Positions 7,404 to 27,267 of a DNA stretch of 40,000 bases are shown one piece after another. The DNA is from Methanolobus vulcani (GTDB lineage: Archaea; Halobacteriota; Methanosarcinia; Methanosarcinales; Methanosarcinaceae): contig NZ_FNCA01000006.1 of the NCBI RefSeq assembly GCF_900100715.1, forward strand, positions 152,058 to 192,057, given 5' to 3'. The notes under the pieces are model-generated. The model was not told the DNA's origin, ran no database searches, and saw only the letters and a program-made list of their open reading frames with translations. Within the stretch, counting starts at the first letter, position 1. Every line of letters begins with the position of its first letter. The position numbers were made by a program, and so were the translations under genes.

Positions 7404-7866
7404 TGTAATTTCCCTTTTATTGTTTTGCTCTGCTAGTATAAAATTTTGGTCCATATTTGGTCTTGTGGTGGACGTTTTCATTATCTTATCTTTTACACTC
7501 TGCTAGTAAATTATTATATAATGTTAACGGCGTTAACATTGCATTGCTAAGTACCACTATCAAGATAAGAATCTTTAATCTATTTTAAATGGAATATTTG
7601 GTTGCTTATAAGGCTTATTATATGAAAAATAACACATATTGAACTTCTTAATCAGGTATTCTACTTTTGTCATAAATGAATAATTCATTTTAAAAATCTA
7701 AATGGTATACAGATAGTTATAAATAGCATTATGTTTCGACACATTTAACATTTAATTTAAAAGAATGGGTTCCTTTAGTGATGTTTCCAGCAAGAATACA
7801 AAGAGAAAGATAATGTTTGTTTAATTTTGGAGATCTGGAACTCCAACTTATTTTTGATTTAATGGG

Positions 7867-7903
<37 letters not shown>

Positions 7904-8107
7904 AGAGATAAATCAGGTTCATATTCTACTTTCCTTTATAGATTCGTTGATATTTATAAAATATTGATAATATGTCATAGGAACAATCTTTTATATTTAA
8001 AGATTTCATATGGAAAAGTCAGTCAAAAATCTGGCACGATTACATAATATTAAGATGAGAATCATCTGATATATTCCTGAAATTCTAAATGAAAGAGAGG
8101 ATTAATT

Positions 8108-8332
8108 TTGTTCCCAAGTAAGAAAGTCCAGAAATTAGTTGGATCCAAGGTCCAGGTAGAGATGAAAGGTGACCTTCACCTTCTCGAAGGAACTCTGAAA
8201 AGTGCAGACGATTATATGAATCTCCATATGGTCGACACTATAGAGGTTGCAAACGGTGAGCGTCTGCGTTCCCTTGGTTCAGTCGTATTGCGTGGAAACA
8301 ATATCATTCTTGTTGTTCCAATGGAAGAATAA
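8108..8332 (+). CDS. Archaeal Sm-like (LSm) protein
   Basis: 74 aa. Sm1/Sm2-like pattern: VQVEMKGDLHLLEGTLKSADDYMNLHMVD...RSLGSVVLRGNNIILV. It has a TTG start with AGAGAGGA 6 nt upstream, and an in-frame TGA at 8090 limits any extension. Confidence 0.85.
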   Translation: MFPSKKVQKLVGSKVQVEMKGDLHLLEGTLKSADDYMNLHMVDTIEVANGERLRSLGSVVLRGNNIILVVPMEE

Positions 8333-8351
8333 ATTCTCAGTGGAAACTAGC

Positions 8352-8702
8352 ATGAGTATCGAAGAGACTGCGTACAATCTAATTCGTGACAGCAAGGAAG
8401 GTATTTTCCAGAATGAGCTCTGGAAGATGCTGGAAATTGATAGCCGTAAATGTTCCAGAGTTGTTTCTAAGCTTCTCGATGAGGATCTTATCACCCGTGA
8501 GCAGGCTGTCTCGAATGGAGCCAGGACTTACCTTCTGAAAGTTAAGGAAGAGGAGAAGCCCTGCTTCGATCTCCTGTTATCAGGAGAAATGTTCTCACCT
8601 TGTGCAGGATGCAGGGATGCATGCCAGCCTGAGATATGTGGAAAGCTTACTGCATGGGTCGAAAACCTCAATGATAACGAGGAAACAGGTGAAATGTGCT
8701 GA
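8352..8702 (+). CDS. Winged-helix DNA-binding protein with C-terminal Cys cluster
   Basis: The track ORF 8247..8702 overlaps the Sm gene. The ATG at 8352 (MSIEETAYNLIRDSKEGIFQNELWKMLEIDSRKCSRVVSKLLDEDLI) gives a typical wHTH. The C-terminus carries CAGCRDACQPEIC. Confidence 0.6.
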   Translation: MSIEETAYNLIRDSKEGIFQNELWKMLEIDSRKCSRVVSKLLDEDLITREQAVSNGARTYLLKVKEEEKPCFDLLLSGEMFSPCAGCRDACQPEICGKLTAWVENLNDNEETGEMC

Positions 8703-8710
8703 CCTCGGCG

Positions 8711-8723
8711 AAAGGTTTATATA
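8711..8723 (+). promoter_or_regulatory. Candidate archaeal BRE/TATA promoter for tRNA-Glu
   Basis: AAAGGTTTATATA lies ~47-59 nt upstream of tRNA position 1. That would give a short 5' leader. Confidence 0.45.
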
Positions 8724-8769
8724 GAATATCTGCTATGTTGGAGTCGCTTCACTAAAGCGAAATCAACGT

Positions 8770-8847
8770 GCTCCGGTAGTGTAGTCCGGCCAATCATTCC
8801 GGCCTTTCGAGCCGAAGACTCGGGTTCGAATCCCGGCCGGAGCACCA
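8770..8847 (+). tRNA. tRNA-Glu (anticodon UUC), CCA encoded
   Basis: Hand-folded cloverleaf. The acceptor GCTCCGG pairs with CCGGAGC. The T-arm is TCGGG-TTCGAAT-CCCGG. The anticodon arm is CCGGC-CTTTCGA-GCCGA, with TTC at positions 34-36. The 27:43 pair is a C-A mismatch. The 3' end is ACCA. Confidence 0.9.
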
Positions 8848-9403: not shown

Positions 9404-9913
9404 TTATTCTCTTCTGGTAAATATGAATGCTAAACCAAGTATTGCAGCAATTGGTAGTGCGATTGTTGGAAATTCAGGTACTGCGCAGACATCCCTTGAT
9501 GCAGAAGCATAACAGGTTGCTGAACTTGTTCCTGTATAGATCTTCACTTCATAGACAGCTCCAACAGGAGCATTTGAATCAAGCTTTAGTGTGATAACGC
9601 CGACATCATCATATTCTGGATATGTTGTTGGTGTAAAATTGTGAGTAAAAGTGATGTTGATATCGTTCACTGATCCTCCACCTGTTACGTCCAGTATATC
9701 ATATCCATATGGAGTTGTTAACCCCATTGCAGAACTTGTCAGTTTTTCTGCATGATAACTCAAAATAACAGAACTTCCTGGCAACAGGTTAATGGGATTT
9801 GGTGCAAGTCCACTTGCTGTTTCATCATATATTCTTCCTGTATGGGTCAAGCTCGCATCAGCCAGTCCGGTGCAAATTGCTAAAGCTAACGCTAAAATTA
9901 TTAGTTTTTTCAT
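9404..9913 (-). CDS. Secreted protein with PEF-CTERM archaeosortase sorting signal
   Basis: N-terminal signal peptide MKKLIILALALAICTGLADA. The C-terminus PEFPTIALPIAAILGLAFIFTRRE is a PEF motif plus TM helix plus basic tail. Confidence 0.7.
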   Translation of the reverse strand: MKKLIILALALAICTGLADASLTHTGRIYDETASGLAPNPINLLPGSSVILSYHAEKLTSSAMGLTTPYGYDILDVTGGGSVNDINITFTHNFTPTTYPEYDDVGVITLKLDSNAPVGAVYEVKIYTGTSSATCYASASRDVCAVPEFPTIALPIAAILGLAFIFTRRE

Positions 9914-12981: not shown

Positions 12982-13107
12982 TGGTCGTTATTGTTATTAT
13001 TGTTGCTATAATTTCTGCCATAATTGTCACCATATTAGCCGCCATATTTGCAGTAGATGGAAACGATTATCTTTTGAGCAATGCTATATTTAAACCGGGT
13101 AATTCCT

Positions 13108-13335
13108 ATGATTCTTATTCAAAGAAGATATCAGGATGATGTTGAGCAGATAAGTGAGGCAGATGTTGATCGTGTTAAGCTGAATCTTGGCATAACGAGG
13201 AAAGTCTGCTGCGGTGGCAGGGAGAAGAAAGATTATGACCTTGGCTGGATCGAGAATCCAAAGGACATGAAAATAACCACTGTTAAGGATTATGAGATCA
13301 GGGACAGGGTGCTTGAGGTGTGGATCGAACCTTGA
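13108..13335 (+). CDS. Hypothetical small protein (75 aa)
   Basis: The track ORF is 13081..13335. An internal ATG at 13108 sits ~20 nt downstream of the TATA-like CTATATTTAAA, so it could be leaderless. Coding-like GC; no family recognised. Confidence 0.3.
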   Translation: MILIQRRYQDDVEQISEADVDRVKLNLGITRKVCCGGREKKDYDLGWIENPKDMKITTVKDYEIRDRVLEVWIEP

Positions 13336-13450
13336 GGCAGTTAAGTTTCCCTTATTAAATCTTTATCTTATCTCTGGATCATTTTAACTTTCAAAAAGTG
13401 AATGACCAGAATAATGCTGGTCACAAACATCTTAAAATCAAAAGGAATCG

Positions 13451-13735
13451 TCAATCTTTGTTAAAACTTATTTTGTTCTCTGTCATGAATTTCATGCAGG
13501 CTTCTGATTCCATAACAGGGAAGCTGTCAAAGTAACAAATATCTCTCCAGGGAAATGTTCCTGCTGCAAAAGCTTCGGCATTTTCTGCATCATAGATCAA
13601 GATGTGACGGCAGGAAGTCAGATCTTCCCATTCACTGATAACTTTCAGTCCTTTCGGATATTCCCATTTTGCAAATCTGTCCAGCATTTCAGCTGTGTCT
13701 TTAGGTTCCCATGTAATTATATCCATGAAAAGCAT
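13451..13735 (-). CDS. Small cytoplasmic protein, DUF3303-like
   Basis: 94 aa starting MLFMDIITWEPKD...FAKWEYPKGLKVISEW. This resembles DUF3303 family members from memory. Confidence 0.45.
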   Translation of the reverse strand: MLFMDIITWEPKDTAEMLDRFAKWEYPKGLKVISEWEDLTSCRHILIYDAENAEAFAAGTFPWRDICYFDSFPVMESEACMKFMTENKISFNKD

Positions 13736-13782
13736 TTCTTTTCCACTCCTCCTTTATTCAATTTCATTTTCCGGCTATTCAA

Positions 13783-13814
13783 AAATAAATAAATAAATAA
13801 ATAAATAAATAAAT
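13783..13814. repeat. (AAAT)8 tetranucleotide microsatellite
   Basis: Eight perfect units read directly, 48-79 nt upstream of the minus-strand start at 13735. Confidence 0.95.
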
Positions 13815-13978
13815 TACAGGCCGGAATATTACTTTCATTATAGAATTGATTTTAAAAAATCATATTTTTTTTGAATCAAAGATACTTAACATAATTCCTG
13901 ATTTTAAAAGCAATATCAGGTTGAAAAAGTATGAATCAAATCGAACATAAAAAAAGAAAAATGAAATTTTAGTACTTC

Positions 13979-14272
13979 TCACTCAATTTCTACTTCAAGT
14001 CCACCGACAATTCCGGTGATGACATTGAAGATAAGAGCTACGATAATACCACCAATGAATCCGATGATACCATAGAATATTGGCATTGTTATTATTGAGC
14101 CCATGCCGAACAATACGCCTCCGGCAAAGCCAATTTTTCCGAACATGGAACCCATTATGATATATGAAAGGCTCATCAATGCTCCTATTATAAGTCCCAG
14201 TATTGCATATACAGCACCAAGGATCTTCCCAAGAGAGATTACCCCAACTTTGTTGATATATTGTGTTGTCAT
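13979..14272 (-). CDS. Small Gly-rich integral membrane protein
   Basis: 97 aa with three hydrophobic G/I-rich segments (ILGAVYAILGLIIGALM, GVLFGMGSIITMPIFYGIIGFIGGIIVALIF). Confidence 0.5.
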   Translation of the reverse strand: MTTQYINKVGVISLGKILGAVYAILGLIIGALMSLSYIIMGSMFGKIGFAGGVLFGMGSIITMPIFYGIIGFIGGIIVALIFNVITGIVGGLEVEIE

Positions 14273-14418
14273 AGAACAATCATCACCATGTTATTTTAGA
14301 ATTAATTGAGTTTATATGAAATACGCTTGCAATGATTTTCGTATTTTTGTAAGAACAGAGCTCAAATGAGATAAAAAATGAGATATATTACTCATTTTCT
14401 ATCATTCGATCAATTTTA

Positions 14419-14559
14419 TTAAATTGTATGATTGTACAGAAGATCCGCACTTGTCATGCATCCGCAGTTGGAACAATAATAAACGATGTTCATTCCAAGC
14501 TTCTGCCTCTTTAGCATGTTATTACACTTCTTACAGGATTTTCCCGGTTGGTTGTCCAT
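14419..14559 (-). CDS. Zinc-ribbon mini-protein (46 aa), below the ORF-track size cutoff
   Basis: My translation: MDNQPGKSCKKCNNMLKRQKLGMNIVYYCSNCGCMTSADLLYNHTI. It has two CxxC pairs and GAAGGAGGA 7 nt upstream. Its ATG directly follows the TGA of the upstream mini-ORF. Confidence 0.5.
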   Translation of the reverse strand: MDNQPGKSCKKCNNMLKRQKLGMNIVYYCSNCGCMTSADLLYNHTI

Positions 14560-14718
14560 TCAGAGTCCTCCTTCACTTAGTGCTTCGTATAACATCATTG
14601 AGTCCATTCTTGCGGTGTTCTCCCTTGTCCAGTAACCACATGTTTTACAAACCTGTAATCCACTTGACAATTTATGAAAATCTCCATGGCATTCAGGACA
14701 CATTTTTAAAGATCCCAT
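14560..14718 (-). CDS. Zinc-ribbon mini-protein (52 aa; alternative start at 14703 gives 47 aa), below the ORF-track size cutoff
   Basis: My translation: MGSLKMCPECHGDFHKLSSGLQVCKTCGYWTRENTARMDSMMLYEALSEGGL. CPEC...CKTC forms the zinc ribbon. GGGAG lies upstream and a TATA-like TATATAGTA lies ~30 nt upstream. Confidence 0.5.
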   Translation of the reverse strand: MGSLKMCPECHGDFHKLSSGLQVCKTCGYWTRENTARMDSMMLYEALSEGGL

Positions 14719-15093
14719 TTTTATAACTCCCTTATCTTCCTATTACTATATATTTTACAATTTGAGCCACATCGCTCTCAGTTAGTGTAACTTCTATTAC
14801 AGGCCGAGCCATTCCCTTTTACTCGCCTGATTTCAAATTTGAGCCATATGGCACATCCCACTTCCTTATATATTTGTGTTAATGGTATTTAAGGTATTTT
14901 AAATATTATTTTTTTTATATTTGGGAGTTAAGAACTCTTCCCATATCTCTCTTATTAAATACAATTTAATTATATATGCTATATAATTATTTTGATGGAA
15001 AAAAAGATTGGCTTGTAGAAAGGCGATTGAAGACTTTATATTATCAACTATTTCTACATGACCTAAAAATATTTTAATTATTTTGATTGTTTA

Positions 15094-16647: not shown

Positions 16648-17126
16648 TAAACGCTGCCCCATTTTACAGCTTACTCCCTTATGACCAATTCTTATTATGT
16701 ACTTAATGGTATAAGCAACTGGCGGTCATATAACTGTGAATTATTTTATGAGAATAATTCAAAACTCAATGTCATCCCTCTTAATTTTAATTATGATTGG
16801 GAGGAGATGGGATTTTCTAAAAGTGATTTGCATTATATCATTTCAGAATGGTGATTCTGATAATCATTTGATATGAATACTTATGTAAAGGGTAGGCTGA
16901 AGATATAGAAATTTCAAGGAGCAGGTTTCAGGGAATCAAATAAAAAATTAGAGTAATGGAAATCTCAATTTTAATACTCCGATGGTGAGGAGGTTAAGAT
17001 GATAATTTTAAAATTCATAGAATTAGCTAAATACAAATAAAAAACTTAAAATGTAATAAGTTTATAAATAGTACTATTATTTTTACCACATAAGTAAAAG
17101 GAATCAAAATTAACGATTGGGTGCAT

Positions 17127-18197
17127 ATGATGGATTTTATTGATGAAGTAAAAGCCTTGGCTGCAAGGATACCAAACCTTAAAGACAGCATCATGACAGA
17201 GGAAGCAACAAAAAATGCATTGGTTATGCCGATGATTAACATACTTGGGTACAATGTCTTTGATCCAACCGAAGTTGTTCCAGAGTTCACAGCAGATCAC
17301 GGCACAAAGAAGGGCGAAAAAGTAGATTATGCCATTATTAAAGCCGGAGAACCTATTATGTTAATAGAATGCAAAACACTTGGTTCTGATTTGAATACCA
17401 ATCATGCATCGCAGTTGTTCAGATACTTCAATGTTACAAGTGCCAAGGTAGGAATTCTCACAAACGGTACGACATATCGCTTTTTTTCAGATTTAGAAGA
17501 TGCAAATAAGATGGATGACAAACCATTCTTAGAGATAGACCTCCTTAATCTGAAAGATGAACAAGTAGAAGAATTAAAACGATTTAAAAAGGAACGTTTT
17601 GATGTGTGTGAACTTGAATCTGTGGCAAATGAATTGAAGTACACTAAAGAAATCAAGCAGATTCTTTTGTCTGAGATGAACAAACCATCTGAGGATTTTG
17701 TTAAGTTTTTTGCTAATTTGGTGTATAATGGCAGGATAACTCCTAACAAGCGAGACCAATTTACTGCAATTACAAAAAAGGCTTTCAATCAGTTTATTAA
17801 TGATAGAATAAATGAAAGACTCAAAATAGCAATGTCAAATAAGAATCACAGTGATGAGGTTGATGTTGAAGAAGATATTGTTGAACCTGTTGATGATGGA
17901 ATTGTCACTACAGAAGAGGAAATTGAAGGCTATCACATTGTAAAAGCAATCCTTCGTGAAACAATTGCCCCAGACAGAATAGTTATGAGGGATACAAAAA
18001 GTTATTGTGGCATTCTCTTGGATGACAATAACAGAAAGCCAATATGCAGGCTTCGATTTAACAGTGCTCAAAAATATGTTGGCATACTTGACGACGATCG
18101 TAAAGAAATAAAAACTCCGATTAACAATTTAAATGATATTTATGAGTTGACAGCAAAAATTAAATTAGTTGTTGAAAAAATGGAATCTGATAGTTAA
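17127..18197 (+). CDS. PD-(D/E)xK nuclease-fold protein, type I restriction enzyme HsdR N-terminal-domain-like (HSDR_N_2-type), stand-alone
   Basis: Core GEKVDYAIIKAGEPIMLIECK (D-x13-E-C-K) followed by ASQLFRY (QxxxY). The C-terminal region YHIVKAILRE...SYCGILLDDNNRKPICRLRFN recurs, from memory, in stand-alone HsdR_N-domain proteins. The track start at 17121 is a GTG, with ATGs at 17127 and 17130. Confidence 0.6.
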   Translation: MMDFIDEVKALAARIPNLKDSIMTEEATKNALVMPMINILGYNVFDPTEVVPEFTADHGTKKGEKVDYAIIKAGEPIMLIECKTLGSDLNTNHASQLFRYFNVTSAKVGILTNGTTYRFFSDLEDANKMDDKPFLEIDLLNLKDEQVEELKRFKKERFDVCELESVANELKYTKEIKQILLSEMNKPSEDFVKFFANLVYNGRITPNKRDQFTAITKKAFNQFINDRINERLKIAMSNKNHSDEVDVEEDIVEPVDDGIVTTEEEIEGYHIVKAILRETIAPDRIVMRDTKSYCGILLDDNNRKPICRLRFNSAQKYVGILDDDRKEIKTPINNLNDIYELTAKIKLVVEKMESDS

Positions 18198-18378
18198 TAC
18201 AATAAGTAATATGGCATGGATAAATTATTTGCTATATCATGTTTTCCACAGGAAGTTAAAGGACATTTTGAATTGCTAGAAGACAGTTTTTAATTAAGAA
18301 TCATACTCATTTTTTTCATTTTTATTTAAAAGCAAATTTTGAATGGTTATATTTATACTTTCCATAATTTAAACTTAA

Positions 18379-18409
18379 AAGTTCCGTTTTTTGACGTTAC
18401 CTATTACCC
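18379..18409 (+). repeat. 31-nt repeat, copy 1: AAGTTCCGTTTTTTGACGTTACCTATTACCC
   Basis: Matches 27101-27131 at 30/31 positions in the same orientation. The leading TAAAAGTTCCGTTTTT (18376-18391) also recurs exactly at 27048-27063. Confidence 0.9.
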
Positions 18410-22785: not shown

Positions 22786-24405
22786 ATGTTCTGCTATCAG
22801 TGTGAAGAAACAATGAACGGGGAAGGCTGTACAAAGAACGGCATGTGCGGTAAGAAAGGTGATGTTGCAGATCTTCAGGATAATCTAATCTATGTACTTA
22901 AGAGCATTGCATTCTACAATCAGAAAGCAAGAAAGGCAAACATTTCTGAGAACAGCACTGATAATTTTATGCTTGATGCATTGTTCTCAACCATAACTAA
23001 TACCGATTTCAGAGCCAGTGGAATTCAGGAGCGTATCGACAGAGGATTTCATATACAGAATGAGATCAGGCAAAAACTTCTGGAAAACAATGCACTTGAT
23101 GAGAACGATCTGCCCGAAATCGCAACTTTGACCCCTGAGAACCTCAGTGACAGGAATACAGGTATACTTGCAACCGAGGATGAAGATATACGGTCATTGA
23201 GGGAACTGTTGATCTTTGGCATCAAAGGAATTGCAGCATATGGGCATCATGCCATGATGCTTGGTAATTACAATAAGAAGATTAATTCATTTGTAGAAGA
23301 AGGACTTGTAGCAACTACGGATGACAGCCTGAATGATAAGGACCTCATCTCATTGGTCTTGAAATGCGGAGAAAAAGGTTTTGATGTAATGGCAGACCTG
23401 GACAGGGTAAATACAGTAGCCTTTGGAAACCCTGAACCCACACAGGTCAATATCGGAACAAGAGATAATCCGGGAATCCTTGTAAGCGGTCATGACCTGA
23501 AGGACCTGAAACAACTATTGGACCAGACCGAAGGAACAGGCGTGGATGTCTATACTCATGGTGAAATGTTGCCTGCAAACTCATATCCTGAATTTAAGAA
23601 ATATGAACATCTGGTAGGCAACTATGGCGGCTCATGGTGGCACCAGAAGCAGGAATTCGAGAGTTTTAACGGACCGATATTACTTACAAGCAACTGCATA
23701 GTTCCTCCAAGGGAGAGCTACATTGACAGGTTATACACAACAGGCTCTGTAGGCTATGATGGTGCCAAACATATAATAGCTAAAGACGGCCAGAAAGATT
23801 TCTCTGCACTTATCAAGCAGGCGAAGACCTGCGAAGCTCCGGTACAACTGGAAGAAGGTACCATCATGGGCGGTTTTGCTTACAACTCCGTGTTATCCAA
23901 TGCAGACAAAATTGTTGATGCTGTCAAAACCGGAAAGATAAAGAAATTCATTGTCATGGCAGGCTGTGACGGACGTCACAAGGACAGGCAGTACTACACG
24001 GATTTCGCTGAGGCATTGCCTGAAGATACAGTTATTCTTACTGCCGGATGTGCAAAATATCGCTACAACAAACTCAATCTTGGTGACATTGATGGAATTC
24101 CAAGGGTATTGGATGCAGGACAGTGTAATGATTCATTCTCACTTATCGTTATTGCACAGGGTCTTATGGCAAGACTTGGATTTACAGATGTTAACGAGGC
24201 ACCGATTTCATACAATATCGCGTGGTACGAACAAAAGGCGGTCCTTGTATTGCTTACCCTTCTGAGACTTGAAATACAGAATATTACACTTGGCCCGACA
24301 CTTCCAGCCTTCGTCTCACCAAATGTCCTTAAGGTACTTGTGGAAAAGTTCAATATCACACCGAACACGACCGTGGAAGAAGATATGGAAAGACTTTTAA
24401 AATGA
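22786..24405 (+). CDS. hcp: Hybrid cluster protein (hydroxylamine reductase)
   Basis: N-terminus [24 protein letters not shown], 539 aa, with a family-typical C-terminus. Confidence 0.92.
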
Positions 24406-24459
24406 AACTCCTCCATTCTCAATGAACACGGAATAGGCACACGTGTAAATGGGTCTGAA

Positions 24460-25605
24460 TTGCATATTCGGGAGGGTAGACATACCACAGATATAGAACC
24501 GAAAAGGTATGTATTTTCCCCCCAGAAAACAGACATAGACCACATCATTGTTTATGGCAGAAATGGAAATCTTATTCTTGATGCTGTTAGATGGTTGATT
24601 AAACATAATGTTCAGATCACTTTCCTTGATTGGAACGGTAAAATTCTAAGCACCTTACAACCTCCTGAAACTACCAATGTAAAGACTAAGTTTGCTCAGT
24701 ATCATGCTTTTGAGGATGATGAAAGCAGAATAACGATAGCAAGGAAGTTCATTGAAGCCAAGTTTGATAAATCCATTGTAGTTATGGACTATCTTAAACA
24801 ACGGTATCCTGAAATTGATTTTGATTTCTCAGAGGATATTGAAAAATTGAAATCTGCTAATTCTATCAAGGAAATTATGGGTATTGAAGGCGGAGTTGCT
24901 TGGAAATACTGGAACGAGTTCAACAAAGCTATTCCAGGTGAATATGATTTTTGTTCAAGGATAGACCAATACAGGAGAGCAACAGGAGCAGGAGATAAAG
25001 TTAATGTCATGCTTAACTATGGTTATGCTCTTCTTGAAGCTGAATGCCTGAGAGCCATTAATACAGCAGGTCTTGATGCTCATGTAGGTTTTTTACATGA
25101 GATGAATCCAAGCAAGAACAGTCTTGCTTATGATCTCCAAGAGCCTTTCAGATTCCTTGTTGATATGGCTGTAATCAACCTTATTGAGTCCAATAAGATG
25201 GATAATAACGACTTTATCAGGACTGAGAGCTATTCACTCAGGCTCAAACCTTCAGGAGCTAAGAAGGTTACTGAGGAGTTTAATAATTTGATGAACAAGA
25301 AAGTACCCTACAAAAAACAATCTGTTATGTGGAGCTATGCCTTATTATTGAAAACTAGGGAGCTTGCTCAGTATCTTGTTGGTAAAAGGAAGACTATTGA
25401 TTTCATTAAGCCTGCTTATAATGTTGAAAGGCAGGATTCAGATGATATTCGGCAGAAAATACTGAATATTTCTTACTCTGATTGGAAGAAGATGGGATTC
25501 TCAAAAGGTACACTCCATTACATGAAAAAGAATGCTGAAGCTGATAAGCCATTTACAATGAACGCTCATGTAAGGGAAAGGTTGGAGATGTGGGAAGAGT
25601 GTTAA
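24460..25605 (+). CDS. cas1: Stand-alone Cas1-family integrase (casposase-like, with C-terminal HTH-like extension)
   Basis: Canonical Cas1 core: MGIEGG (E143), NVMLNYGYALLEAE, GLDAHVGFLHE (H213), SLAYDLQEPFRFLVD (D225/E228). An extra ~55-aa C-terminal tail reads ISYSDWKKMGFSKGTLHYMKKN. The only in-frame start is the TTG at 24460. The frame stays open upstream to the hcp TGA. Confidence 0.85.
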   Translation: MHIREGRHTTDIEPKRYVFSPQKTDIDHIIVYGRNGNLILDAVRWLIKHNVQITFLDWNGKILSTLQPPETTNVKTKFAQYHAFEDDESRITIARKFIEAKFDKSIVVMDYLKQRYPEIDFDFSEDIEKLKSANSIKEIMGIEGGVAWKYWNEFNKAIPGEYDFCSRIDQYRRATGAGDKVNVMLNYGYALLEAECLRAINTAGLDAHVGFLHEMNPSKNSLAYDLQEPFRFLVDMAVINLIESNKMDNNDFIRTESYSLRLKPSGAKKVTEEFNNLMNKKVPYKKQSVMWSYALLLKTRELAQYLVGKRKTIDFIKPAYNVERQDSDDIRQKILNISYSDWKKMGFSKGTLHYMKKNAEADKPFTMNAHVRERLEMWEEC

Positions 25606-25634
25606 TTTTTATCTTGAGAGTCAAATTATGAAGG

Positions 25635-26867
25635 TTATTTTGGAATATCAAAAGCTAGTAACGTTAAATACAGTTTTCTATTTTTATCATTAGGATGATT
25701 AAATATGAACCTAAATCCAGTTTCAGTGTCATAAGCAATTTCTTTTTCAAAGTTGGGATGTTCCTTTACTATATTAGGTATCTGGGTAAGAACATTTGTG
25801 AAATTTTTGTTCCGGTTGAATATAAAAATAGCTGTTTTTGTATCCCTCCAACTTAAGTAATTAAGAATCTGGTCAATTGTATCCTTTAATATTGCAGCAC
25901 CTCCCCAAAATTTACATTCTGCAATGAATATATTTTTTCCCCCTTCTCTAATTAATATATCCGTTTTTCCCTCATAATTAAACGTCTCACCCGTTGCAGC
26001 ACCTTCATAATGTCCGTTTAATTGAACAAGAAAATGTTGCCTTATAGCTTCTTCACCTAAATTCTTAAATTCGCTTGGACTTCGTTCCATGACCATTGTC
26101 ATATTTTGAACCACATTTAGTATATATTCATAATTTTCCATGCTTAATACTGGTTCTGGCTTAAACGGTTGAGTAGAAGCTGAAGGTTTAGAGATAATTG
26201 TTTTTCTTTTTGAAGGAACGCTATAAGTCTTAGGTGTTCCAGGTATTTCTCTTAAAGGAAAACCAAGTTCATAAGCAAGATTACTATCCTTAAGCAGCTT
26301 TTCTCTTCTAGTATTTATTTGGGATTCTATTTCTCTATCTAACCTTTGATTGAAATTTTTAATATCTGTTTCCACCCAAGTTAACCATTTTTCGATATCA
26401 GACAATATTTTATCAAATTCTACCCTAATATTACCTATTTCTAAATCGACTCCTTCTAAAGTTACTAATAATTCTTGATTTCGAACTTCACCTTTTGGAG
26501 GATTATAATTTAAAATAGAAGGCTGATATTTAAATAAACTTGAATCTCCTGTAAAAGGAATATAAAATGTAAACTTTGTTCCAGTCAGATAATATGATTT
26601 ACTCCCATCTAAGAAAACTCTTTTTGAATCCTGACTTACATCTATCTCAACTTCTTCGTGTTGAATATGTATATTTTCTTTATCTATAACAGGCAACTCA
26701 AATGAGTAACTATCAACTAAATGTTCAGTATAGTCTTGCATGTTTACATTTAAAATGTAATTCTTATCTTCACTCTTAATTTTATTTATTGCATAACTAA
26801 GTCTGTCATTAAGAAAAGATCGTAATTCTCCATCGTTAAATAAATAATCATATATGAACTCGTACAT
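25635..26867 (-). CDS. Hypothetical protein with C-terminal PD-(D/E)xK nuclease-like core
   Basis: 410 aa. C-terminal core ETFNYEGKTDILIREGGKNIFIAECKFWGG (D303-x13-E317-C-K319), then IDQILNY (QxxxY). The N-terminal ~230 aa are unrecognised and include a helical or coiled stretch (aa ~150-200). Very AT-rich. Confidence 0.6.
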   Translation of the reverse strand: MYEFIYDYLFNDGELRSFLNDRLSYAINKIKSEDKNYILNVNMQDYTEHLVDSYSFELPVIDKENIHIQHEEVEIDVSQDSKRVFLDGSKSYYLTGTKFTFYIPFTGDSSLFKYQPSILNYNPPKGEVRNQELLVTLEGVDLEIGNIRVEFDKILSDIEKWLTWVETDIKNFNQRLDREIESQINTRREKLLKDSNLAYELGFPLREIPGTPKTYSVPSKRKTIISKPSASTQPFKPEPVLSMENYEYILNVVQNMTMVMERSPSEFKNLGEEAIRQHFLVQLNGHYEGAATGETFNYEGKTDILIREGGKNIFIAECKFWGGAAILKDTIDQILNYLSWRDTKTAIFIFNRNKNFTNVLTQIPNIVKEHPNFEKEIAYDTETGFRFIFNHPNDKNRKLYLTLLAFDIPK

Positions 26868-27047
26868 AAAATTGCCTCGTATTTAATAACTTTAGTAAAG
26901 ATAAATTAGTTCATTAATTTACTTTTAACTGTAAACATGGATTCATTCTTAATAAACTTATATTTAGAGATTTTAGTAAAATAGAAACATTCAAAATATC
27001 AATTCTATTTTTTATTGTTCATGATAAATGAACAGTATTGTTTTTAG

Positions 27048-27063
27048 TAAAAGTTCCGTTTTT
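27048..27063 (+). repeat. Partial extra copy of the 31-nt repeat's 5' part (TAAAAGTTCCGTTTTT)
   Basis: Identical to 18376-18391; lies 38 nt upstream of full copy 2. Confidence 0.8.
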
Positions 27064-27100
27064 CTTCTCAAATTTGCATAATAGTTAAAATTTGTAATAG

Positions 27101-27131
27101 AAGTTCGGTTTTTTGACGTTACCTATTACCC
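27101..27131 (+). repeat. 31-nt repeat, copy 2: AAGTTCGGTTTTTTGACGTTACCTATTACCC
   Basis: Matches 18379-18409 at 30/31 positions in the same orientation. Confidence 0.9.
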
Positions 27132-27267
27132 AAAATTAATTTGCTATAGGTATAATTCGAACCAAAGAGCTACGTTGATTTTATTTCATAATCTGCAAAG
27201 GCATTGTGAGAAACAGCATAATCATGTAGAAATTGCATTTTCATCTATCTTACTCTTCAAAAAAATC

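Follow-up and report, generated by a model that had tools for sequence, protein, structure and literature searches.

A cas1 gene of Methanolobus vulcani is very probably a leftover of a decayed family 2 casposon

Casposons of family 2 have been described, and degraded casposons are known as well (Krupovic et al., 2014, PMC4046053). An experimentally studied representative of this family is MetMaz-C1 from Methanosarcina mazei (PMC10359463; structure 6opm), and the Cas1 proteins of family 2 possess a C-terminal HTH domain that is given as family-2-specific (PMC4046053). Reported casposon remnants include solo TIRs, inactivated casposons and casposons in tandem, and insertion in tandem as well as targeting of tRNA-Leu or CGCA sites is likewise documented (Krupovic et al., 2016, PMC4779613); MetBur-C3 and a second element of M. 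psychrophilus are further inactivated examples (PMC4046053). Within a 40,000-nt stretch of the M. vulcani contig NZ_FNCA01000006.1, hereafter the window, we analyzed an island at positions 24402-27131 which very probably represents the cas1-proximal arm of a decayed family 2 casposon, in which a casposase gene is retained together with a single cargo gene and a single TIR (Table 1). A first-pass annotation of the window had left three readings side by side, namely a decayed casposon that lost PolB, a minimal mobile casposase element, and a novel module of Cas1 plus nuclease. The first of them is supported by the family 2 casposase, by PolB-bearing relatives with the same terminal sequence and by a genuine TIR ending at position 27131; the locus is an ordinary transposon relic, and a new Cas1 system is not supported.

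The cas1 ORF and the convergent gene for a 410-aa protein were recovered as annotated, with 29 nt between their stops, and the island is indeed AT-rich, having a GC content of 0.25-0.37 against 0.42-0.45 in the flanks. The reported lack of a CRISPR array, of other cas genes and of PolB in the 40-kb window was also confirmed, since the repeat, Rfam, Pfam, PADLOC and tblastn scans were all empty in this respect. In particular, the window yielded no CRISPR array in the search for tandem and CRISPR repeats and no Rfam CRISPR-DR match, no cas2 or other cas gene in the Pfam and PADLOC scans, and no family B DNA polymerase, either by tblastn with casposon PolB or by Pfam scans of the window ORFs. The HNH endonuclease and two HTH proteins, all core genes of family 2, were not found between 24402 and 27131. 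An ORF at 8247-8702 shows similarity to the C-terminal part of a casposon HTH protein; it is located 16 kb off and adjoins an Sm-like gene. Scanning for sigma-70 promoters and terminators performed no better than on shuffled sequences, this model being not informative for an archaeon. At the left junction, the C-terminus of the host hcp product (...EEDMERLLK) is native, as the same end is found in two other loci, L036 and the syntenic Methanolobus MAG L068, where the stop codon is TAA; here, the TGA stop comes from the ATGA of the cas1 start. Towards the right end, the subterminal region contains an incomplete internal repeat of the inner half of the TIR, TAAAAGTTCCGTTTTT, at 27048-27063.

Table 1. 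Features of the island and of the second relic in the window, with coordinates and supporting observations.
Feature	Position	Strand	Observation
Second relic: decayed casposase 3' fragment (HTH region) with in-frame stops	16726..16914	+	tblastn, HMM match; reads ...NYDWEEMGFSKSDLHYIISEW, stop, F, stop, stop, SFDMNTYVKGRLKI, stop
Second relic: cargo gene, 358-aa protein, HSDR_N (type I restriction R-subunit N-terminal, PD-(D/E)xK-type)	17121..18197	+	Pfam
Second relic: TIR	18376..18409	+	same orientation as 27098-27131
hcp (hybrid-cluster protein), host gene, left junction	22786..24405	+	Pfam Prismane 1.7e-163
Casposase gene, 5' end disrupted	24402..25605	+	ancestral ATG 24402-24404 overlapping hcp stop
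Translatable casposase ORF, 381 aa, TTG start, minus first 19 casposase residues	24460..25605	+	Pfam Cas_Cas1
Cargo gene, 410-aa protein, PADLOC candidate defence family PDC-S54	25635..26867	-	PADLOC PDC-S54 1.9e-158
AT-rich subterminal region, upstream of cargo gene	26868..27097	.	GC ~0.25
Casposon TIR, cas1-proximal end, TAGAAGTTCGGTTTTTTGACGTTACCTATTACCC	27098..27131	+	match to either TIR of the complete L005 casposon
Target-site remnant outside TIR	27132..27181	-	resembles the tRNA(-like) T-arm, acceptor end and target preceding the TIR in L005 and L027

The 381-aa protein deduced from the translatable ORF matched Pfam Cas_Cas1 (2.8e-67) and, over residues 1-379, positions 37-415 of the solved M. 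mazei casposase 6opm (E 4e-180), compared with only 2.4e-38 for the best CRISPR Cas1. The CRISPR-subtype Cas1 models gave 40-165 bits against cutoffs of 120-560, and none of them passed. The four catalytic residues, E143 in GIEGG, H213 in GFLHE, and D225 and E228 in YDLQEPFR, are located where the annotation had placed them and are invariant across 14 aligned relatives; the C-terminal HTH-like extension that it described is present too, with residues ~326-381 aligning over their full extent both with the HTH-bearing C-terminal part of 6opm and with all relatives. Judged by its sequence, this Cas1 is a family 2 casposase. It shares the superfamily (Pfam Cas_Cas1, TIGR00287) and the catalytic residues with the Cas1 of CRISPR adaptation, which, in contrast, has no C-terminal HTH (PMC4046053), and neither Cas2 nor a CRISPR array nor effector genes accompany it in the window. 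Whereas the catalytic residue set is incomplete in the non-casposon Cas1-solo group 1 (PMC4046053), all four residues are present here, which places the protein in group 2, that of the casposases. The database label "CRISPR-associated endonuclease Cas1" attached to the 381-aa ORF is misleading and calls for caution in annotation.

The nearest Cas1 relatives (85-91% identity) are all found in canonical casposons with PolB, and share the layout PolB(-), 110 aa(-), 212 aa(-), 290 aa(+), Cas1(+) and cargo. The casposase survey comprised 73 loci from species-representative genomes; PolB, p212 and p290 accompanied almost every full-length cas1 copy that had sufficient sequence upstream. Two elements served as references for the ends of the island: a complete casposon at a tRNA-Leu gene (L005), with the target site duplication (TSD) CGCATATTTTTATGG, and a PolB-less TIR-cas1-cargo-TIR element of ~3.2 kb in Methanococcoides vulcani (L027), with the perfect TSD CGCACAATACTTCGG. 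The TIRs of L005, at 9669-9699 (forward) and 116-147 (inverted), match the window TIR, the reverse complement of which resembles the published TIR of MetMaz-C1, GGGATATAGGTAACTCAAAAAAACGCAACGC (PMC10359463); furthermore, its terminal 13-mer TTACCTATTACCC was found at both casposon ends in L014 and L015. The element ends at 27131, the end coordinate already given by the annotation. Outside this end, local alignment of the flank with the targets of L005 and L027 gave scores reached by 1-2 of 2000 shuffles; for the flank of L087, which contains the CGCA motif, none of 2000 shuffles reached the score, and an Rfam search of both TIR flanks in the window retrieved no tRNA or relevant fragment. Only this one junction survives, its flank resembling the tRNA-like target of L005 and L027. 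Upstream of cas1 lies the hcp coding region, without room for an element end, and no second, inverted TIR was detected in the window when 3 mismatches in 23 nt or 2 mismatches in 13 nt were allowed. The weak inverted match between the island ends noted earlier (24430-24445 against 27115-27131) was rejected as a TIR, because 24430-24445 falls within conserved cas1 codons (HGIGTRV).

An orthologous relic, sharing the TIR, the flank and the gene adjacency, is present on a metagenome contig (L087), with an 85% match to window positions 27102-27166. Its PDC-S54 gene is intact, showing a dN/dS of 0.18 against the window orthologue, and of its cas1 only ~80 codons are left, with a stop. In the syntenic locus L068, the cas1 fragment and hcp are both full of frame breaks, of which assembly quality is the probable cause, and dN/dS values against L068 are consequently unusable.

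The 381-aa ORF had been taken for an intact stand-alone cas1, but it opens at TTG because the real 5' end of the gene is broken. After codon 4, the reading frame is lost through an additional base in CTCCTCC (about 24411-24414), resulting in the peptide MKLLHSQ and a stop at 24423-24425; the rest of the coding sequence continues in the +1 frame. In the DNA alignment, all five relatives have a 1-nt gap at the extra base, the protein alignment agrees, and deleting one C restores an ORF of 400 aa. Inspection of the sequence before the TTG revealed no obvious ribosome-binding site, and any casposase product would at best be N-terminally truncated, starting from this codon. Among the first 30 cas1 codons 12-14 differ, compared with ~8-13% elsewhere in the gene (Fisher p 3e-4 to 3e-7). 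The dN/dS of cas1 against intact casposon cas1 genes is 0.08-0.12, and the gene body, with all its catalytic residues, shows no visible relaxation of selection, which counts against decay; accordingly, either cas1 was inactivated recently, or the cell still uses a truncated protein, or the one-base frameshift stems from an error in the assembly. Fragments of cas1 truncated at the 5' end were found in ~40 other genomes, with in-frame stops in all three that were checked.

The match of the 410-aa protein to PDC-S54 is full-length (526 bits; residues 6-409 against profile positions 4-407 of 410), and neither Pfam nor NCBIfam nor a phmmer search of PDB sequences returned a match. In the predicted structure, a disordered linker (about residues 205-240) separates an alpha/beta domain with a long helix at the N-terminus from a C-terminal domain, which probably carries a PD-(D/E)xK motif formed by D303 and E317-C-K319. 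Such proteins are recognized by an alpha-beta-beta-beta-alpha-beta core with D...(D/E)xK on strands 2 and 3; the earlier designation as a PD-(D/E)xK protein agrees with the D...ExK motif conserved among homologues and with the topology of the model, whereas the search for a nuclease fold gave a weak signal. Homologues number more than 6,890, and most of them are encoded far away from any Cas1; some are situated inside type I R-M loci without Cas1. No casposon genes are found near the homologues in L010-L013, L089 and L091, while in L088 the homologue adjoins PolB, in the other casposon arm. Co-occurrence with Cas1, which the annotation had proposed to check, was not observed within 10 kb at any of the 73 casposase loci of other genomes; the adjacency of the two genes recurs at the orthologous relic L087. 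By this distribution, the 410-aa gene is independent cargo, which is maintained by purifying selection for its own function and would not work with Cas1. PDC-S54 is a candidate anti-virus protein with a putative defence function; none of the papers in the library searched mentions it.

The "second nuclease island" of the annotation (16726-18409) is a second, older casposon relic with the same layout. Its casposase fragment shares 32-43% identity with Cas1 residues about 341-406 (E 1.5e-4 to 7e-4, tblastn, 40-kb database), and its cargo protein matched Pfam HSDR_N (3.4e-15) and HSDR_N_2 (5.1e-10), with no match in PADLOC. The repeat said to be common to both islands proved to be the TIR, the two copies being 94% identical over 34 nt and fully identical in the last 23 nt, where chance alone would give 0 matches of this kind. 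The flank of the second relic showed no likeness to a tRNA end beyond chance, its scores being reached by 259-454 of 2000 shuffles. An inversion between the two TIR copies, considered for the like-oriented ends flanking ppsA-hcp, was rejected, since direct repeats yield deletions and not inversions. The second relic is absent from L068.

We infer the following order of events and mechanism of deletion. A casposon, complete or already a PolB-less derivative, would have been integrated by its own casposase at a tRNA-like target now just outside 27131. A later deletion would have taken the other arm (PolB, small conserved genes and the second TIR) together with everything between that arm and hcp, fusing the last hcp codon straight to the cas1 ATG; afterwards, cas1 may have acquired its +1-nt frameshift behind codon 4, and its N-terminal codons may have drifted. 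As far as the sequence tells, the element is no longer mobile, having one end, no polymerase and a casposase that is truncated at best. It is therefore very unlikely that the island is a minimal PolB-less casposon still mobile via its own or a trans-supplied casposase. Elements of this kind exist, as L027 demonstrates with its two TIRs, cas1, single cargo gene and perfect TSDs, and the island matches L027 in gene content and arm length; this option nevertheless fails at the window locus, where a single TIR is accompanied by a frameshifted cas1, where hcp leaves no space for another end, and where a lineage differing by 18% at the DNA level has preserved the right junction, implying no recent movement. 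That the two genes form a functional module, the Cas1 integrase and the 410-aa nuclease acting jointly in, for example, defence or DNA capture, is hardly credible. The genes are adjacent and convergent, and their adjacency is repeated in L087, but L087 is an orthologous locus and not an independent pairing, and there cas1 is a short pseudogene fragment beside an intact 410-aa gene. Together with the absence of co-occurrence at the 73 loci, the large family without Cas1, the homologues beside PolB or without casposon genes, the treatment of PDC-S54 by PADLOC as a single-gene candidate and the frameshift at the window locus, this largely refutes the novel module.

Domestication of the casposase, kept for a transposition-independent host function either as a truncated protein from the TTG or, if the frameshift is an assembly error, as a full-length protein whose translation is coupled to that of hcp via the ATGA overlap, is an unlikely explanation as well. 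The low dN/dS of the gene body, the intact catalytic residues and HTH, and a 381-aa sequence that is identical in both NCBI and Logan sources are in its favor; however, such a low value is to be expected should the gene have diverged mainly during its time in an active casposon, the first 30 codons are significantly over-diverged, nearly invariant positions included, the TTG has no obvious ribosome-binding site ahead of it, the orthologous cas1 of L087 has been reduced to a remnant, and erosion is the rule for the 5'-truncated copies in other genomes. Within the preferred reading, that of a decayed casposon arm, it is possible, though rather doubtful, that the ancestor was a PolB-less two-gene casposon (TIR, casposase, cargo, TIR) like L027 rather than a full self-synthesizing one; mini-casposons of this type would in that case be distinct, site-specific shuttles of single defence genes, with hosts keeping the cargo arm while the machinery erodes from the far side. 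If so, their cargo in Methanosarcinales would include PDC-S54, HSDR_N nucleases and type IIG R-M enzymes. A literature search on non-autonomous casposons found nothing relevant.

The decayed casposon arm removes an apparent novelty, as a methanogen Cas1 without CRISPR, Cas2 and PolB is here a casposon leftover, and it makes the exact TIR and junction available for a casposon lineage in Methanolobus. Candidate defence genes are documented as cargo of casposon arms: PDC-S54 occurs in either arm, and other casposon copies carry an NsnB-like ATPase as well as type IIG and BanI R-M systems. Under purifying selection, such cargo is able to persist after the transposon has decayed. PDC-S54, listed in PADLOC-DB v2 as a single-gene phage defence candidate, is matched here along its full length, and homologues elsewhere lie within type I R-M loci, a location typical of defence islands, whereas in the window, in L087 and in L088 the gene is carried on a casposon.

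Like family 2 casposons, the island has a casposase with a C-terminal HTH and the four catalytic residues, a host from the Methanosarcinales, a TIR of about 31-34 nt that ends in TTACCTATTACCC and is similar to that of MetMaz-C1, a target resembling the 3' end of tRNA-Leu with a CGCA motif, and a variable nuclease or R-M cargo beside cas1. Unlike them, it is a non-functional relic without PolB, the HNH gene, the HTH proteins and the second TIR, and with a frameshifted cas1; family 2 casposons are flanked by a target site duplication of 14-15 bp, of which the window retains one junction. In common with the published remnants, the island is an immobile leftover at a former integration site, with one TIR kept and genes disrupted, and the 40-kb window holds two casposon relics. 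Those remnants, however, are bare solo TIRs or whole mutated elements, whereas the relic described here keeps a near-full-length casposase gene and an intact, selected cargo.

The island at window positions 24402-27131 is very probably the immobile arm of a family-2 casposon, with a cargo gene that would have been kept for its own function. The catalytic residues that the first-pass annotation assigned to its 381-aa Cas1, namely E143, H213, D225 and E228, were indeed located in the motifs GIEGG, GFLHE and YDLQEPFR, and are unchanged across the 14 relatives aligned with it. The 381-aa ORF is 100% identical to a Methanolobus vulcani protein at NCBI. The closest solved structure is 6opm (E 4e-180), the casposase of Methanosarcina mazei, labelled Cas1 in its entry; the match runs end to end and covers the C-terminal extension previously described as typical of casposases. 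The top match to a CRISPR Cas1 among solved structures had an E-value of 2.4e-38, and none of the CRISPR-subtype Cas1 models came near its cutoff. Family-2 casposon Cas1 proteins all carry a C-terminal HTH fusion that no other Cas1 has, and in 'Cas1-solo group 1' the catalytic set is incomplete (Krupovic et al., 2014; PMC4046053). Because this set is complete here, unlike in that group, the ORF was grouped with the casposases, and by sequence comparison it classifies as a family-2 casposase, neither a CRISPR Cas1 nor an orphan. Searches of the 40-kb window found no CRISPR array, no other cas gene and no PolB, as first reported. Public records label the ORF 'CRISPR-associated protein/endonuclease Cas1', and the same CRISPR label is carried by the whole clade of ~400-aa proteins from Methanolobus, Methanococcoides, Methanosarcina and Methanoregula, the members of which with contexts read are casposases.

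Features of the island and of the second relic (window numbering)
Feature	Position	Strand	Evidence or remark
Cas1-family ORF, 381 aa	24460-25605	+	Pfam Cas_Cas1 2.8e-67; TIGR00287 5.3e-65
410-aa ORF, convergent with cas1	25635-26867	-	29 nt separate the two stops
Island TIR	27098-27131		
Decayed cas1 3' fragment with stops, second relic	16726-16914		tblastn E 1.5e-4; ...WEEMGFSKSDLHY...
Second-relic cargo gene, HSDR_N nuclease domain	17121-18197		
Second-relic TIR, same as island TIR	18376-18409		

Homology searches recovered 382 Cas1 homologues at E <= 1e-10, the best 120 of which are ~400 aa long and belong, where the organism is named by the source, to Methanosarcinales and Methanomicrobiales. 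All close relatives with contigs read (L003-L009; Cas1 identity 85-91%) share the layout PolB(-), 110 aa(-), 212 aa(-), 290 aa(+), Cas1(+) and variable genes, and the same core minus the 110-aa gene occurs in L001 and L002 from M. psychrophilus R15, a published casposon host. Contig L005 (Cas1 91% identical) harbors a complete casposon at the 3' end of a tRNA-Leu gene, with a 15-bp target duplication (CGCATATTTTTATGG) and TIRs GGGTAATAGGTAACGCCAAAAAACCGAAC... and ...GTTCGGTTTTTTGACGTTATCTATTACCC. The island TIR is identical to the L005 TIR at 30 of 31 nt and, in reverse complement, resembles the published TIR of MetMaz-C1 (GGGATATAGGTAACTCAAAAAAACGCAACGC; PMC10359463); position 27131, originally given as the island end, thus marks a genuine end of a casposon. 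The repeat already noticed as common to the two islands is a direct repeat of 34 nt, with the final 23 nt identical and a chance expectation of 0 such matches. On the minus strand, the 50 nt adjoining the TIR externally (27132-27181) are similar to the tRNA-type T-arm, acceptor end and target found ahead of the TIR in L005 and in the L027 element of Methanococcoides vulcani, with a score matched by only 1-2 of 2000 shuffles. Sites of this type are known targets of family-2 casposons, which use tRNA-Leu 3' ends and look-alike sites beginning with CGCA (PMC4779613). An Rfam search called no tRNA at 27132-27181, so the likeness of this flank to a tRNA is graded as a resemblance. In the subterminal region, the inner TIR half (TAAAAGTTCCGTTTTT / TAGAAGTTCGGTTTTT) occurs twice, 50 nt apart (27048-27063 and 27098-27113), and may be either a local duplication or a subterminal repeat bound by the casposase.

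At its left junction, the 18 in-frame codons 5' of the TTG start of the 381-aa ORF are still alignable with the N-termini of relatives, and by DNA alignment the ancestral start codon of cas1 is the ATG of 24402-24404, which shares bases with the TGA stop of hcp at 24403-24405. In the same alignment, a CTCCTCC run near the cas1 start holds one extra base, absent from every relative, so that the ATG frame gives MKLLHSQ* and then terminates; with one C taken out, a 400-aa casposase is regained. Close relatives differ from it at 12-14 amino acids within the first 30 codons, compared with ~8-13% in the remaining protein (Fisher p 3e-4 to 3e-7). For hcp, the C-terminal LLK is native, being identical in L036 (Methanococcoides alaskense) and L068 (a Methanolobus MAG), where the stop is TAA, and a search of the window found no second TIR for the island. 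Because the hcp end is native, the ancestral ATG overlaps its stop and a second TIR was not found, a deletion probably fused the final hcp codon to the cas1 start, with loss of the second TIR along with the arm that held PolB; a short A/T-rich similarity at this joint may reflect microhomology. The weak inverted match at 24430-24445, noted earlier between the island ends, falls within the conserved HGIGTRV codons of cas1 and does not form an element end. The cas1 body shows dN/dS values of 0.08-0.12 against intact copies; thus, the inactivation would be recent, or the truncated protein is in use, or an assembly error produced the frameshift.

The island is AT-rich as first noted (GC 0.25-0.37 against 0.42-0.45 in the flanks), and the 'second nuclease island' has the same anatomy, with no recognisable target-like sequence in its outside flank. 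Two further AT-rich stretches, 13000-15090 and 7500-8000 (GC 0.23-0.36), hold no ORFs other than short ones, along with (ATAA)n/(AAAT)n microsatellites (7867-7902 and 13783-13814); tblastn and HMM searches detected no casposon-related sequence in either. Region 8108-8847 comprises an Sm-like ORF (~8108-8333), a small wHTH/Cys-rich ORF (8247/8354-8702) and tRNA-Glu (8770-8847). In the L005 casposon the first gene encodes 644 aa, and the wHTH ORF shares 48% identity with the C-terminal 104 of these and 68% with the M. bombayensis counterpart across 50 aa, with no TIR nearby; it could be a host gene with a domain captured by casposons, or a third casposon fragment.

The convergent 410-aa gene lies where the initial reading placed it. 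Its product matched nothing in Pfam, NCBIfam or PDB sequences, and is a full-length member of the PADLOC candidate family PDC-S54 (E 1.9e-158), a very large family with at least 6,890 matches among 8,000 candidates scored, the few named ones being bacterial and archaeal. PDC-S54 homologues lie within or beside type I R-M loci in three comparison contigs (L012, L013 and L089), and no casposon genes were found near those in L010 and L091. AlphaFold models (pLDDT 80.9 for the whole protein; 85.9 with pTM 0.85 for the C-terminal domain) display an alpha-beta-beta-beta-alpha-beta core with invariant D303 and E317 on consecutive strands and a D...ExK motif in which K319 is the consensus residue. Since the Foldseek nuclease matches are weak (OkrAI, prob 0.85, TM 0.43; McrC, prob 0.80), the nuclease-like C-terminus is graded as a probable PD-(D/E)xK domain.

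In a survey of GTDB species representatives covering 73 casposase loci (L014-L086), PolB is missing and cas1 is fragmentary at about 40. Several of these still show a TIR on the downstream side, at a distance of 0.75-3.2 kb, with none on the upstream side, and the three fragments checked contain 1-3 in-frame stops each. In most fragments the retained part is the gene's 3' end, a bias that is partly methodological, as the scan patterns sit in the C-terminal half of the protein; the survey points to recurrent one-sided erosion sparing the cas1-proximal arm. Cargo of this arm elsewhere includes a type IIG R-M enzyme (L023), an NsnB-like ATPase (L063), a BanI R-M system (L003), a TPR protein and unknowns. 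Methanococcoides vulcani SLH33 (NZ_FOHQ01000003.1; L027:9640-12935) harbors a PolB-less mini-casposon of ~3.2 kb, ordered as tRNA-like 3' end, TSD CGCACAATACTTCGG, TIR, ~270 bp, full-length cas1, a 524-aa ORF (no match in Pfam or PADLOC), TIR and TSD, the duplication being perfect. The ancestor of the island relic may have been of this PolB-less, two-TIR type, of which no description was found in the open-access papers searched. The TIR of another casposon directly follows the L027 element, and L026 and L036 contain full-length cas1 with a TIR-like motif 300-400 bp upstream and no PolB. In several genera of Methanosarcinaceae, casposons or their relics adjoin hcp or ppsA: TIR and cas1 lie 4.2 kb beyond hcp in L036; in L068, ppsA and fen1 are followed by inverted hcp and a cas1 fragment; and in L026, L038 and L041, ppsA is 2-7 kb from cas1. 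The pattern suggests that an insertion here is old or that the vicinity of these genes is a preferred target, with local rearrangements in addition.

The closest PDC-S54 homologue (80% aa) is encoded on a 2.3-kb metagenome contig, L087, in the same arrangement as in the island (82% DNA identity with window 25384-26965). The contig carries the TIR and the same outer flank, CGCA motif included (85% over 27102-27166), hence the insertion is older than the split of these lineages. Its cas1 is reduced to the last ~80 codons, with an in-frame stop, and adjoins a different upstream gene, and its PDC-S54 gene is intact, with dN/dS 0.18 at dS 0.62 against the window copy; the far side therefore eroded independently in each lineage, and it is on the cargo gene that selection acts. 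In L088:800-2743 (Logan SRR24415079), a 64% aa homologue was observed in the opposite casposon arm, flanked by TIR-like sequence (~814-826) on one side and a casposon PolB 3' end on the other, so PDC-S54 has been casposon cargo more than once, with no fixed link to cas1. Judging from these arrangements, it is a putative defence gene captured at both casposon cargo positions. A Cas1-plus-nuclease module with a function of its own, as once envisaged, is hardly credible: none of the 73 loci carries a PDC-S54 homologue within 10 kb, the partner is intact where cas1 is nearly gone (L087), and the window cas1 is itself frameshifted.

Domestication of the truncated casposase would agree with the low dN/dS of the cas1 body, by which the protein is possibly still used, and is nevertheless unlikely. 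A mini-casposon mobile to this day has a precedent in L027 and is very unlikely for the island, in which a single TIR was found. The decayed casposon without PolB, one of the readings initially offered, agrees with the family-2 casposase, the casposon TIR, and the missing second TIR and PolB. Defence cargo in casposon arms, one-sided erosion and PolB-less two-gene casposons are points possibly worth more work. Casposon decay, solo TIRs and tandem insertions have already been described (PMC4046053, PMC4779613), and the island adds an instance to this known kind of casposon remnant.
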